Positions 3,955-62,062 of a stretch of DNA of 64,000 bases are shown here, piece after piece. This DNA is from Octopus vulgaris (taxonomy: Eukaryota), in the NCBI GenBank assembly GCA_951406725.2, contig OX597835.1, positions 39,680,001-39,744,000 of the forward strand, written 5' to 3'. Position 1 is the stretch's first letter; the number at the start of each line of letters is the position of its first letter. A model generated the notes under the pieces. The model ran no database searches. It had not been told where the DNA came from and saw only the letters and a list, made by a program, of their open reading frames with translations. Both the position numbers and the translations under genes were made by a program.

Positions 3955-4500
3955 CTGTTTCTTACTGGTACTCCGTCGGTTGCGACGATCAGGGTTCCAT
4001 CCAGTTGGTCCGATCAACGGAACGGCCTGCTCGTGAAATTAACGTGCAAGCGGCGGGAGCACTCCACGAACACTTGTCCACTTAGCGTCGTTCTCGGAGA
4101 AATTCAGCGTGACACAGAGGGGACAAACAAGGACAGAGAAACGGTCTAAGTCGATTATATTGACTCCAGTGCGCAACTGGTACTTATTTAATCGACCCCG
4201 AAAGGATGAAAGGCAAAGTCGACCTCGGCGGAATTTGAACTCAGAACGTAGCGGCAGACGAAATACCTATTTCTTTACTACCCACAAGGGGCTAAACACA
4301 GAGAGGACAAACAAGTACAGACAAACGGATTAAGTCGATTATACCGACCCTAGTGCGTAACTGGTACTTATTTAATCGACCGCGAAAGGATGAAAGGCAA
4401 AGTCGACCTCGGCGAAATTTGAACTCAGGACGTAGCGGCAGACGAAATACCTCTAAGCATTTCGTCCGGCGTGCAAACGATTCTGCCACCTCACCGCCTT
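3955..4500 (-). mobile_element. Composite SINE: B1 + headless B1 + family C tail
   Basis: B head at 4500, junction gaaata|ggtatttcg at 4268/4267; second unit switches near 4110-4125 to the family C 3' sequence seen at 5215-5375. Confidence 0.8.
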
Positions 4501-4988
4501 TCTCTCTGGTATTTGTATAGAAAAATTACTTCATCGATAAATAACTCCTCATCGTAGATCAAATTTGTAAATAAATCGTTGTGTGATTTCGACAAGTGAC
4601 TGGACGCCATACTGTTGTTCTCATTATCGATTTCATTAACCGATGTTTGACCCGATAAACGTTTTATTTAATCCACAATCACCCTCATTGTTACTAAGTT
4701 ATTAAAAAAAAAACAAAATGTGTGAAAACATTTGTTTGGACATACGAAATCTGGCTAAGCTTGGCTAATTGAAGAATATCAAAGGAAATTGCAAAACCAC
4801 TTAGAGGGGATCGAAAAACACGAACCATGCTAATAGACACTCAATAAACGATACCAATCAATAAAATCACGTGGATTGGGTTGAACACAAAGATTACGGG
4901 CATAAAACTAAGTATAGTGTATATGTACACAAAAAACTTATTATAAAGGGAAACAAAAACCTTTTATTCATGTTTTATTATATAATCC

Positions 4989-5379
4989 GTGGAGGCGCAA
5001 TGGCCCAGTGGTTAGGGCAGCGGACTCGCGGTCATAGGATCGCGGTTTCGATTCCCAGACCGGGCGTTGTGAGTGTTTATTGAGCGAAAACACCTAAAGC
5101 TCCACGAGGCTCCGGCAGGGGATGGTGGTGATCCCTGCTGTACTCTTTCACCACAACTTTCTCTCACTCTTACTTCCTGTTTCTGTTGTACCTGTATTTC
5201 AAAGGGCCGGCCTTGTCACTCTCTGTGTCACGCTGAATATCCCCGAGAACTACGTTAAGGGTACACGTGTCTGTGGAGTGCTCAGCCACTTACACGTTAA
5301 TTTCACGAGCAGGCTGTTCCGTTGATTCGGATCAACCGGAACCCTCATCGTCGTAACCGACGGAGTGCTAGAAGAGAAG
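4989..5379 (+). mobile_element. SINE family C (tRNA-Arg-like head), full length with 12-bp TSD
   Basis: A-box tggcccagtgg, B-box gtttcgattcc; TSD attatataatcc at 4977-4988 and 5380-5391. Confidence 0.9.
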
Positions 5380-5404
5380 ATTATATAATCCCTATACAGA
5401 TAAC

Positions 5405-5494
5405 ATATAACCGGAATGCCTTATATAACCGGAATGCCTTATATAACCGGAATGCCTTATATAACCGGAATGCCTTATATAACCGGAATGCCTT
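5405..5494. repeat. Perfect 18-bp tandem repeat x5 (atataaccggaatgcctt)
   Basis: Five identical contiguous units read directly. Confidence 0.95.
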
Positions 5495-57722: not shown

Positions 57723-59974
57723 AGATGTTGCTACTGTTTCTAACAAGTAGGTCAGGATAATGATGAAGGAGATTTGGCTGCTATTTCTCGCATGGCTCAG
57801 GATAATGTTGATAGGTGGTTGTAGTGTTTAACCCCAGGTCAATCCAGATTGATCAGTGTTTCATTAAAGTCGTTCCAGCCACGACATCCCTTCCAATTTT
57901 CCTATCCCAGCGTTATCGAACTCACTGTTTTCTGCGACGCAAGGACGCGATTTGATGGAGATTTAGCAGCTATTTCTAGCATGGCGAACAACCACCAGCC
58001 ATATACAGGTTCGCCTTTAGCTGGGTTATAGAGAAAAATGATGATGGCGGCGGTCGTGGTGGTGGTGGTGGTGACGAGGACAGTAGCGGCGGTGGTGGGG
58101 ATGAAAGGGGTTGGGGGGTATGTGGTATGTTTGGGTGGAGTAAGGATCAGGGGAGGGGGAGGTGTGCGCTCGCAGGGTGTGAAAGGGTTCAGCGTTTGTT
58201 TGTCAATCGACGGAGCTGAAATAATTCGATTAGGCCGGTGATGGTGGTGGCGACGACAGTGGCGACGGTGGTGGTGGTGGTGGTGGTTGTGGTGGTGGTT
58301 GGTGGTGGTGGTGGTGGTGCTAGCGGCAGGCAGTGGGAGGTGAAGGGGTGGGGTGGGGGTGGATAGAGAGGCATCGGAGCAGCAACCGGGAACTCGTTCT
58401 TATACTGTAATTCTTTACAAAACAAACACACCACCCACATCACCACCACCACCACCACCACCACCACCACCACCACCAACAACAACAACAACAACAACAA
58501 CAACAACAACAACAACAACAACAACAACAACCACCTACAACTACTGCAAGCATGCACCACCGCACCACCCCCACCCACCAGCATCGCCGCCAATACGCAA
58601 CACGCCGCCACCGTTACCACCACCAACCACAATCCATTTCTTTTCTCTTCCCATTACCCACCTCTTTTCCTCCCTCCCTCTCTCTCTCTCTCTCTCTCTT
58701 TCTTTATCTCTCTTACCAACAGCATACCATCATCACCTCTCCACTTTCGCCCACCACTACCAGCAATGATTTATCGCTCTCTCTCTCTCTCTCTCTATCT
58801 CTCCCTCACACACACACACACACACACACACACACACACACGCAAACACACGCATGCGCCCTTCAAGACCACAAACCACCAGCTCTCCCAGTCTGTCTGT
58901 ATGTCTCATTCTCTGCCTCTCTCTCTCTCTCTCTCGCTCTCTCAACATCAGCTCTCTCTCTTTCTCTATCTCAGCATCTCCTCTCCTTCTGTCCCTGTCT
59001 GTCTCTCCCTCCCTCTCTCTCTCTTTCTAAGCATCACTCTCTCTCTAAGCACATTCCCTCAGTCTATTTGTCTCTCTCTCTCCTTGTGTCCCTGTCTCTC
59101 TCTCTCTCTCTCCATCTCTCTTTCTAAGCATCACCCCTCTCTTTCACTCTCTCTAAGCACTTTCCATCTCTTTCTCTCTCTCTCTCACAGCATCACCTCT
59201 CCATGGCTCTCTCTGTTTCTCTCTGTCTAACCACCACCACCACCACCACCACCACCACCACCACCATCTCTCCTTCCTCCTCCTGTCTCCCACTCTTCCC
59301 CTCCAACCCCCAATCCCCAACACGACTAACACTCTATAACCCTTATTTTTTACACAATTTGCGGTCGAGTCACACGAACGACGACCTCGAGGTGGTAGCG
59401 ACGGCGGTGGAGTTAAGGGGATTTAGGGGTCCGTAATTGGGTTTATATAACTAACCCTAATAACATTAAGTAGTGAATGGCGGTGGCGGGGGAGGAGAGG
59501 GGAGGTGGAAATAAAAGAACGGTGAGAGTGGGTGGAGGGTGTGTGTGTAGACTGTTCGTTCCTTAATTGTATTATTAAGGGGGTGAAAGGGGCACTGCGT
59601 CACACCGCACTCCACTCCACTACCCTTACTCACGCGGCACACAATCCAACCCTTTCTTTTCACCCATGTGCATCCCACCCCACCGTCTGCCCTCTATAAT
59701 CATGTAAATATAGCCCCTTGTCCCCCTCCCCATCTGACGCCCTAGCAACAGCAAATAAAGAAAATCACCACTGCAACCATCATTATCATCACCACCACCA
59801 CCACCACCACCACCACCACCATCATCATTATTATTATCATTATTATTATTATTATTATTATTATTATTGCCCCCACCCCCTATTTAACGATTATGTGAAT
59901 TCTATTGTAAATTTGTTTATTGGCCCTTGTGGCTAATAAAGAAATAGCTGTTGTTGTTGTCGTTGTTGTTACGC

Positions 59975-60905
59975 TACAGAATTGCTAGCATTCGCCGGGC
60001 AAAATGCTTTACTAAGCATTTCTGCTCGTCTTCATGTTCTGAGTTCAAATTCCGCCAAAGTCGACCTTGCCTTTCGGTGTTCGATAAAATAAAGTACCAG
60101 TTGAACACTGGAGTCAATATAATCGACTTTAACCCCTACCTCAAAATTACTGGCCTGGTGCCAAAATTTGAAACGATCATTATTATTATTATTATTATTA
60201 CTATTATTATTATTATTATTATTACTATTATTATTATTATTATTATTAAAAGATGGCGAACTGGCAGAAACGTTAGCACGCCGGGCGAAATGCTTAGCAG
60301 TATTTCAGCCGTAGCTACGTTCTGAGTTCAAATTCCGCCTATGTCGACTTTGCCTTTCATCCTTTCGGGGTCGATTAAATTAAGCACCAGTTACGCACTG
60401 GGGTCGATGTAATCGACTTAATCCGCTTGTCTGTCCTTGTTTGTCCCCTCTGTGTTTAGCTCCTTGTGGGTAGTAAAGAAATAGGTATTTCGCTACGTTG
60501 TGAGTCCAAATCCCGCCGGAGTCGACTTTGCCTCTCATCCTTCAGGGTCGATAAAATAAGTACCAGTTGAACATTGCAGTAAATGTAGTCGACTCATTCC
60601 CACCTCTCCCCATGTTGCCCTTGTGGCAAAAATTTGAAATAGTAATAATGATAATAATTATTATTATTGTTGTTGTTGTTGTTATCATCAGTAAGGCGGC
60701 GAGCTGGCAGAAAGGTTAGCACGCCGGGCGAAATGCTTAGCGACACTTCGTCCGTCTTTACGATTTGAGTTCAAGTTCTGCCGAGGTCGACTTTGCCTTT
60801 CATCCCTTCGGGATCGATAAAATAAGTACCACTGAGGTTGATGTAATCGACTAGTCCCCTTCCCCAAAATTTGAGGTCTAGTGCCTTTAGTAGAAAGGAT
60901 TATCA
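59975..60905 (+). mobile_element. Head-to-tail cluster of four SINE B units, including B1 joined to a headless B unit at 60483/60484
   Basis: aaagaaata|ggtatttcg junction; (ATT)n tails. Confidence 0.88.
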
Positions 60906-61629
60906 TTATTATGATTATTATTATTATTATCATTTTATTATTTTTTTTTTCTTCTTCTTTCAAATTTGCTTTCATTTCTTGCCGAGCGTCTTCCCGACTC
61001 CTAGGGCAAAGAAACTCATAGTATACATTGGTAGGCCATTAAACCAAACTCAATAGTTCGTTCATTTTTTTTTTAAGGTTAAATTAAATATTATTTTTAT
61101 TATTATTATTATTATTATTATTATTATTATTATTATTATTATTATTATATACAACAGTATGGCCCTTTAATTGTATTGGGAGGGAATGAGTAACGAGGTA
61201 GGGGTGTGGTGCTCTCTAAATAATACATTACCCCCATCTACGCACCTCTCTCTCTCTCTCTCTCTCTCTCCCTCTTTCTCTTTCTCTGACGAGGAAGAGA
61301 AAGCATAAATACCCACACGCATACGTGCACACACAAGTACACACTCTCACACACACACGCCCGCAAACACACACACACACACACATACACACACCACGTG
61401 CATACACAATGGTGAGAAATGCAAATACCAAAACACAAATACAAGCACTCTCATACGTAACTCAGGAATGGAGCTTGTACGTGGAGGTGGGCGTGGATGG
61501 GTGGACGTATGCCTGTATGTAGGTAGTTAGGCATTTCATACCGGATAATTGAATAACTTTGGTCAATATTATTTCAAAACACACAATTGTTTGTTTAACA
61601 TCAAAATAAATACTGCCCGAGGATATATA

Positions 61630-62062
61630 GGGCTGGTTACCCGGTTTCCGGGGCCTATAAGGGATCGTGAGCACAACATTATCATCTGAATGAGATGCCA
61701 GTCTGTTGCAAGGTAACTTATTTACAGCCGAGTGGACTGAGGCAACATGAAATAAAGTATACCTATTTCTTTACTACCCACAAGGGGCTAAACACAGAGG
61801 GGACAAACAAGGACAGACAAACGGATTAAGTCGATTATATCGCTCCCAGTGCGTAACTGGTACTTAATTTATCGACCCCGAAAGGATGAAAGGCAAAGTC
61901 GACCTCGGCGGAATTTGAACTCAGAACATAAAGACAGACGAAATACGGCTACGCATTTCGCCCGGCGTGCTCCCACGAACACAACGCACTGCCTGGTCCG
62001 AGGATTGAAACCACTAGCCTGCGATCGTGAGCGCAACACACGAACCACTAGGTTCATGCGCC
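61630..62062 (-). mobile_element. SINE E copy with nested SINE B1 (61764-61971)
   Basis: E sequence continues on both sides of B1 when compared with 12690-12925. Confidence 0.8.

Follow-up and report, generated by a model that had tools for sequence, protein, structure and literature searches.

The B1 element and its junction loci

We analysed a 64,000-nucleotide stretch of the Octopus vulgaris genome (hereafter the window; GenBank assembly GCA_951406725.2, contig OX597835.1, positions 39,680,001 to 39,744,000), in which copies of a short interspersed element (SINE) are repeatedly joined to members of their own family at one internal site. The element carries the label B1 from the original prediction, which was made by a model from the letters of the window alone, and it is not rodent B1: Rfam gave no match to signal recognition particle (7SL) RNA at two junction loci (44140-44545 and 4080-4540).

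B1 is a non-coding element of 233 bp, characterized by an A-box-like motif at +13, a hairpin at about +35 to +62 and a B-box-like motif at +77. The B-box-like motif is present at +76/77 in all six full-length copies, and the A-box-like motif at +12/13 follows the strict pattern in three of the six and carries substitutions in the remainder. ARAGORN did not find an intact tRNA gene, and a run of four T residues (T4) is absent from the interior of five of the six full-length copies. The body is common to the family until about +170 and is then followed by one of several tails; older family copies have other tail types and then ATT repeats. We aligned 32 family units from the window, of which 13 show either the B1-type body or the B1 tail of 62 bp, and 11 B1 tails reach their 3′ end. 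We take the element to be a putative octopus-type tRNA/Nin-Deu SINE. On that assumed assignment, B1 resembles the tRNA-Deu/Nin-type SINEs of octopuses in its tRNA-like head, conserved middle, very high copy number and microsatellite-rich host DNA. Both tRNA-Deu and tRNA-Core SINEs, together with L1-Tx1 long interspersed elements (LINEs), are abundant in octopus genomes (PMC8967140).

At four loci an upstream B1 unit runs directly into a headless downstream unit:

4268..4500, minus strand: upstream unit of locus 1, with head (49 bp), body and B1 tail
4112..4267, minus strand: downstream headless unit of locus 1, with B1-type body and tail, ended at 4112 by another repeat
21483..21717, minus strand: upstream unit of locus 2, like older copies in its head end and in having C at site position 3
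21330..21482, minus strand: downstream headless unit of locus 2, old tail type, 34/118 mismatches to the B1 majority
44312..44544, minus strand: upstream unit of locus 3
44140..44311, minus strand: downstream headless unit of locus 3, old tail type, 17/122 mismatches
60251..60483, plus strand: upstream unit of locus 4, with 6 of its 10 body mismatches within the first 15 bases past the site
60484..60650, plus strand: downstream headless unit of locus 4, old tail type, 7-bp deletion past the site, 25/114 mismatches

As originally predicted, the tail AAAGAAATA is fused to GGTATTTCG at all four, namely at 4268/4267, 21483/21482 and 44312/44311 on the minus strand and at 60483/60484 on the plus strand. 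The joined base is +50 of the element; it lies between the A box and the B box, on the 3′ side of the hairpin loop. The prediction had placed it beside a hairpin with the arms gacgaaatgc and gtatttcgtc. The location beside the loop stands, but that exact 5′ arm occurs in only one B1-tailed unit (4457), most having ggcgaaatgc, and the junction hairpin is no more stable than shuffled sequences (z=0.2). A T run lies 14 bases past the junction at 21483, and at three of the four loci none occurs in the 250 bases next to the junction.

The repeat that ends the downstream tail of locus 1 spans 3960-4111 and has a second copy at 5229-5375 (83% alike). The break at 4112 falls exactly at an 8-base stretch common to both elements. 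Older family copies also form head-to-tail chains with ATT or GTT repeats between them (14514-60900; for example 21716-22075, 43965-44544 and 59975-60900).

GGTAT flanks and the junction outside the window

The remaining B1 copies that reach the end of the tail, and the duplication that flanks one of them, all lie on the minus strand:

45970..46202, minus strand: full-length B1 monomer with the GTAGCC loop variant, 3′ flank TATAC; reference for contig mapping
38751..38983, minus strand: full-length B1 monomer with a GGTATTT 3′ flank in non-family DNA, no duplication found
61764..61970, minus strand: B1 monomer within another SINE family, followed by GGTAT, the source of GGT being ambiguous
11628..11924, minus strand: B1 that lies inside another SINE and carries an internal 87-bp duplication; 3′ flank all target-derived, about 1 target base lost
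7886..8019, minus strand: 5′-truncated B1 lying in an ATT tail that belongs to an older family copy; 3′ flank TATAT
48995..49136, minus strand: 5′-truncated B1 in a GAT repeat, flank CAGAT
34924..35488, minus strand: 5′-truncated B1 interrupted by another SINE (34940-35350)
35491..35503, minus strand: target-site duplication, upstream copy, 13 bp, beginning with GGTAT
34911..34923, minus strand: target-site duplication, downstream copy, identical 13 bp

The 3′ flank is GGTAT after seven of the 11 tail ends, that is at the four family junctions at +50 and after the tails at 34924, 38751 and 61764. The original prediction divided the flanks correctly into seven and four, although its position 11630 is 11628. 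Several flanks regarded as non-B DNA belong to other repeats: the copies at 61764 and 11628 lie inside other SINE families, a GAT repeat surrounds that at 48995, and that at 7886 sits in the ATT tail of an older member of the family. The window has 93 occurrences of GGTAT in about 128,000 strand-positions, and enrichment of the motif in the 3′ flanks is present, with three of the seven flanks outside the four family junctions carrying it (p=1.3e-8, the motif having been defined from those four junctions). The family supplies about 5 of 91 GGTAT sites but receives four of the seven GGTAT insertions (p=3e-4; 0.046 if it supplied 20 of 91). A preference for the 5-mer alone is therefore insufficient to explain the family hits. 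Flank type also tends to track the B1 subfamily, one diagnostic base being found in 5/7 versus 0/4 copies (p=0.06, two-sided).

The tail at 34924 has the GGTAT flank that had been reported for it, but it does not stand alone: it terminates a split, 5′-truncated B1 that starts at 35488. A perfect 13-bp duplication starting with GGTAT flanks the whole split element (35503-35491 and 34923-34911). Such a duplication is the mark of target-primed insertion, and since it begins with GGTAT, the motif at this locus is target DNA. The predicted endonuclease preference for GGTAT thus gains support here, even though the 5-mer by itself under-predicts insertion into the family. This is the sole non-family site that could be reconstructed, and it has little in common with the family site beyond the 5-mer. 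At the family junctions a duplication would not be visible because of homology with the inserted copy. At 11628, other copies of the host repeat show that the 3′ flank is all target, with about one base lost, and that RNA therefore ended at the tail. The host repeat at 61764 is only 70-75% like its relatives and so cannot show whether GGT there is RNA-derived. Both target duplications and target truncations have been reported for Tx1-mobilised SINEs (PMC4494074).

The second SINE family at 34940-35350 was inserted, inverted, in the loop of the terminal hairpin of the B1 tail, and two hairpin bases were removed. Inside the copy at 11628 lies a local 87-bp duplication (11713-11886), with private changes common to both halves.

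To follow the junction beyond the window, four sequence runs were aligned to the monomer at 45970-46202. Same-species contigs (X1) contributed 475,333 aligned contigs; the counts given here cover the 15 joints listed, besides which there were 509 weaker ones, some counts are missing from the output, and contig depth is not copy number. The most frequent listed joint was 46152->45970, tail to site, with 53 contigs. All six listed tail-end joints land at 46137-46152 and together comprise 109 contigs, out of 149 for the 15 listed joints. For 850 loose ends located at the tail end, the consensus was the family site, GGTATTTCGTCTG (agreement 0.42), and reciprocally the consensus of 1386 loose ends at the site was the B1 tail (agreement 0.55). 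The joining of B1 is thus real, beyond chance, and extends outside the window.

The letters at the X1 junctions vary as family heads do, with GGTAT at 35%, AGTAT at 13%, GGCAT at 5% and CGCAT at 8% of depth among seven listed forms. In another class, amounting to 24% of depth in the listed forms, GGTA is present twice at the join. The single exact joining site that had been predicted holds within the window, but junction forms in contigs vary in their initial letters and can be shifted in register by as much as 2 bases. The A form reaches 27% of G plus A at the junction; the corresponding share is 21-24% in heads, where the base is in a CpG, and 0.1-3% at five non-CpG sites. After insertion, the junction base is no longer in a CpG. 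Read from these proportions, the A-form share fits what would be expected if the target had decayed before insertion.

In organism E, B1 tails are fewer relative to the body (0.10 versus 0.49 in X1), and five contigs carry the junction. The possibility that the junction is specific to the window's lineage is weakened by these five contigs, since the junction is only about 2.3-fold rarer there per tail depth. Go-back joints corresponding to the head-to-tail chains are the main ones among those listed in organism E. A further run, X13, gave 63 junction contigs among 67 in the listed joints; these are uninformative on expression because the RNA origin of X13 is only a guess. Exact-pattern scans for the B1 tail returned 0 matches each in metagenome, viral and prokaryote contigs.

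Origin of the junctions

The two halves of the composites differ in divergence. Downstream units show 72/476 differences from their own majority, compared with 33/488 for upstream units (p=3e-5; 122 shared columns), and pairs of downstream units are 65-88% identical, compared with 86-92% for upstream pairs. Within composites, the halves are 68-93% identical to one another. Three tail types occur in the four loci, with one downstream unit carrying a B1 tail and three carrying two kinds of old tail. At 21483 the halves clearly differ in age, with 5/122 and 35/118 differences (p=6e-8). The head there fits an age equal to that of the downstream unit (p=0.049), and one older type, seen in the consensus of loose ends from organism E, matches both the end of the head and the start of the downstream unit. 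Unequal divergence of the halves, three tail types and varying junction letters together support independent joining rather than one dimeric master.

The window also holds remnants that point to a class of partner LINE:

27923..29360 (5′ limit approximate), minus strand: decayed Tx1-like LINE with C-terminal part of open reading frame 2 (ORF2) including zf-RVT, 3′ untranslated region and a terminal stem-loop like the B1 tail; candidate partner class
22308..22680 (5′ limit approximate), minus strand: LINE-like 3′ fragment with the most B1-like tail (77.5% over 40 bp), in a CTAT repeat, no ORF left
59870..59946, plus strand: short LINE-like 3′ end with a B1-like terminal stem-loop, between ATT and GTT repeats

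The zf-RVT match of the first remnant has E=9e-4, weaker than the curated cut-off. The remnant is 63-65% identical to three database proteins, two of them with reverse transcriptase (RT), and the full-length relatives of these are proteins of 1,150 residues with endonuclease, RT and zf-RVT domains (PF03372, PF00078 and PF13966). One relative, P0002, scores 196 bits against a protein named transposon TX1 and 79 bits against L1 ORF2p. The LINE-like ends at 22308, 27923, 59765 and 59946 resemble the B1 tail in having a 4-bp stem, a 5-base loop and then an A-rich end, the similarity being short (30-40 bp). One stem pair occurs as C-G, G-C and A-U across copies. Each of the four ends abuts a different microsatellite (CTAT, ATT, CAC, GTT) and none abuts GGTAT; they therefore indicate the class of partner and not the actual partner of B1, which lies outside the window or was not recognised in it. 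These microsatellite-abutting ends recall Tx1 lineages that target microsatellites.

An R4/Dong partner, suggested at first by the 13-bp duplication, was rejected once the tail had matched a remnant of the endonuclease, RT and zf-RVT type. A search for related loci with the LINE remnant passed one of 80 candidates, a 22-residue match in an unrelated contig that was rejected. Open frames at 13901-14269 and 53988-54371 are presumably other LINE fragments, which we take to be RTE-like and R4/Dong-like, and neither gave a Pfam match.

Our preferred reading, to which we assign a probability of roughly 0.6, is that B1 was joined at +50 in its own family by independent Tx1-type target-primed insertions, through a GGTAT-favouring nuclease combined with pairing of read-through RNA. 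Insertion would begin with a nick in the bottom strand at or beside GGTAT, made by a Tx1-type endonuclease. The nicked end would then prime on the 3′ end of the RNA, and would do so better if a junction-bearing source locus had supplied that RNA with GGUA(U...). About 13 bases downstream, a second nick would free an end that matches the new B1 complementary DNA in register, so that the 5′ join would be seamless and the duplication hidden inside the homology. The product would consist of the old head, the new body, the B1 tail and the headless rest of the old copy, and would resemble a one-headed dimer. Because it would keep the A and B boxes at normal spacing and has no internal T4 run, its RNA could run through the junction into GGTATTTCG, pair with the next nicked target and so feed the priming step. 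At 21483, the T run 14 bases on would end such read-through RNA close to the junction.

Pairing between RNA and target during priming has precedents: RNA anneals to the nicked target strand in R1Bm and SART1Bm (PMC7265360), and four matching bases suffice for L1 priming (PMC3649969). The originally proposed priming of B1 RNA on homologous copies is accordingly plausible for RNA running past the tail, with some support from the extra-GGTA junction class, although the circular or multimeric RNA offered with it is not needed. The complementarity between the tail (gaaata) and the site (tatttc), also put forward as a mechanism, is probably incidental, since the same final letters occur in LINE-like ends that have no relation to the SINE head.

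A range of results weighs against our reading. GGTAT does not follow the tails at 7886, 11628, 45970 and 48995 (4/11 copies), and the same flank search found no duplication longer than 6 bp at the other 10 B1 copies, leaving a clear one in 1/11. The predicted age difference between units, present overall and at 21483, is borderline at 60483 (p=0.04) and missing at both 44312 (p=0.53) and 4268 (p=0.06, opposite direction); the signal comes mostly from 21483 and 60483. Equal age of heads and downstream units is not confirmed either: the head at 44312 is young-looking (1/49) and does not match the age of its downstream unit, and the monomer at 45970 also has a more diverged head (p=0.007). In a tree of 24 of the 32 units (122 shared columns; 8 units shorter than 95 bases left out; 1/21 inner branches starred), two downstream units group with two upstream units, and an approximately unbiased (AU) test did not reject a single clade of the four downstream units (p=0.22). 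The argument against a single dimeric master thus draws on unequal halves and three tail types, but downstream monophyly is left standing. The A form would look alike if it arose from an extra A on the tail or from one amplified lineage, and the extra-GGTA form could represent one amplified source lineage. Covariation in the stem of the LINE-like ends is not above shuffles (30-317 of 500), and the ORF-bearing remnant is not the closest tail match and has an ATT repeat, not GGTAT, as its own flank. Finally, a raw-read run under the same species label (X22) aligned 18 of 12.9 million reads, one of them with the junction. So low a yield on a very abundant repeat suggests that X22 comes from another organism or was heavily filtered.

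Part of the evidence would also be explained by an endonuclease that recognises a longer site best matched by the family head, with RNA that ends at the tail and does not pair. The duplication at 34924 starts exactly at GGTAT, the target-derived flank at 11628 indicates RNA that ended at the tail, and target choice is described as set mainly by the endonuclease (PMC4494074). We consider this explanation rather unlikely, because the 34924 site shares so little with the family site beyond the 5-mer, because junctions also occur at AGTAT, GGCAT and CGCAT and in the class with extra GGTA, and because flank type tends to follow the subfamily (5/7 versus 0/4, p=0.06). It is doubtful, too, that the junction arose only a few times and was then copied whole from several dimeric or read-through sources, with the short GGTAT flanks as truncated read-through. 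SINEs that amplify as dimers are known (PMC10702118), the lack of a T run within 250 bases at three junction loci makes long read-through possible, high depth is reached by single variants of the junction, and, besides the AU result, the downstream units of 4268 and 44312 group together in the tree. Against such sources stand the unequal halves of one locus (21483), the three tail types in four loci, the nature of GGTAT at 34924 as duplicated target DNA, and decay of a CpG-like kind at a junction base that has lost its CpG context.

Circular or multimeric B1 RNA, a headless unit of 184 nt reverse-transcribed and primed on homologous copies, is highly improbable. It too would put GGUAU after the tail, and one B1-B1 tandem has a period of 184 with 1.9 copies. 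However, Rfam gave no ribozyme match up to E=10 at 44140-44545 and one unrelated match (E=9.1) at 4080-4540, no trimer occurs in the window, three of the four downstream units have old tails, and the junction hairpin has the ordinary stability noted above; moreover, a headless circle cannot template headed full-length monomers such as those at 38751 and 45970. An equally slim chance attaches to events at the DNA level, in which unequal crossover or local duplication between neighbouring copies would make the composites. The density of the family (32 aligned units in 64 kb), its head-to-tail chains and the 87-bp duplication in the 11628 copy speak for such events. Yet homologous crossover cannot join a tail end to +50, where there is no shared homology, nor repeat the join at one site; the halves are only 68-93% identical; GGTAT at non-family sites is left unexplained; and the 34924 duplication disfavours an origin of this kind.

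Returning to target-primed insertion, we tentatively consider an extension of it possible, in which B1 is self-guiding. Insertions would make promoter-complete loci whose read-through RNA carries the target site, old members would be recycled as heads, further insertions would follow at the same base, and a younger loop variant would be an escape. A loop variant with GTAGC for TTAGC is found in three window copies (45970, 61764 and 11800-11924), and in 45970 and 61764 the next G is also C (GTAGCC for TTAGCG; 46153 and 46158 in the 45970 copy). Through the double change a U-G pair becomes G-C and the GGTAT site is lost. Both variant alleles make up about 61% of aligned depth in X1 and about 4% in organism E, figures biased towards the reference, and no joint to the exact GTAGCC variant is among the 15 listed. 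That the variant is an escape from self-insertion is a guess, and selection on RNA structure explains it equally well.

Other tandem repeats in the window lie at 36300-36667 (unit 135 bp), 55240-55971 (366 bp), 57012-57726 (64/128 bp) and 5405-5495 (18 bp). In an Rfam scan of the whole window, the 150 listed of 230 matches were microsatellites against miRNA models, below thresholds.

Relation to known elements and significance

The closest precedent is the crocodilian SINEU, mobilised by Tx1-Mar LINEs and inserted preferentially at fixed positions of a Mariner element (Kojima 2015, PMC4494074); B1 is not a member of that family. In both systems a SINE is found at fixed positions in an abundant repeat, with duplications and truncations of the target, and tandem SINEU-3 copies were likewise reinterpreted as sequential insertions rather than a dimeric subfamily (PMC4494074). 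The driver of SINEU is a Tx1-clade LINE, and for B1 a Tx1-type partner is proposed from tail likeness. The two differ in that SINEU has a head derived from small nuclear RNA (snRNA) and targets an unrelated Mariner, whereas B1 has a tRNA-like head and targets its own family. Unlike that of SINEU, B1 insertion separates the A box of its target from the B box, and the target's head can pass in register to the new copy.

Other Tx1-clade LINEs with target preference are Tx1L of Xenopus (into Tx1D), Keno (U2 genes), and Kibi and Koshi (microsatellites) (PMC4494074). The LINE-like ends in the window that abut microsatellites are reminiscent of Kibi and Koshi, but Tx1L, Keno, Kibi and Koshi are autonomous elements with described targets, whereas for B1 a class of partner is proposed. 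R1Bm and SART1Bm resemble the model proposed for B1 in that RNA beyond or within the 3′ end anneals to the target and improves accuracy (PMC7265360). They differ in being LINEs of ribosomal DNA (rDNA) or telomeric repeats, whereas the matching sequence of B1 would come from its own earlier insertions. Tandem and dimeric SINEs and SINE-derived satellites also place units of one family side by side, some of them headless or cut at a common position; they were amplified whole, form arrays of similar units or arose by recombination between duplications, whereas the halves of B1 composites differ in age and tail type (PMC10702118, PMC11481361). Our literature search returned no paper on a SINE inserting at one site of its own family, a weak negative since most subscription journals and Repbase lay outside its coverage. 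What is new in B1 is that passenger and target are members of a single family, that the head of the target can be captured and that a feedback loop may result.

The usual targets of site-specific retrotransposons are rDNA, snRNA genes, microsatellites and unrelated transposons. By inserting into its own promoter region, a SINE obtains an abundant landing pad where it does no harm, along with a head already in place. The very many natural insertions into targets of known sequence offer a direct genomic test of the shares that nuclease specificity and RNA-DNA pairing have in target choice. These loci also carry a warning for annotation and phylogenetics: they can be taken for a dimeric subfamily, and paralogous copies hit independently at one and the same base can mimic shared ancestry.

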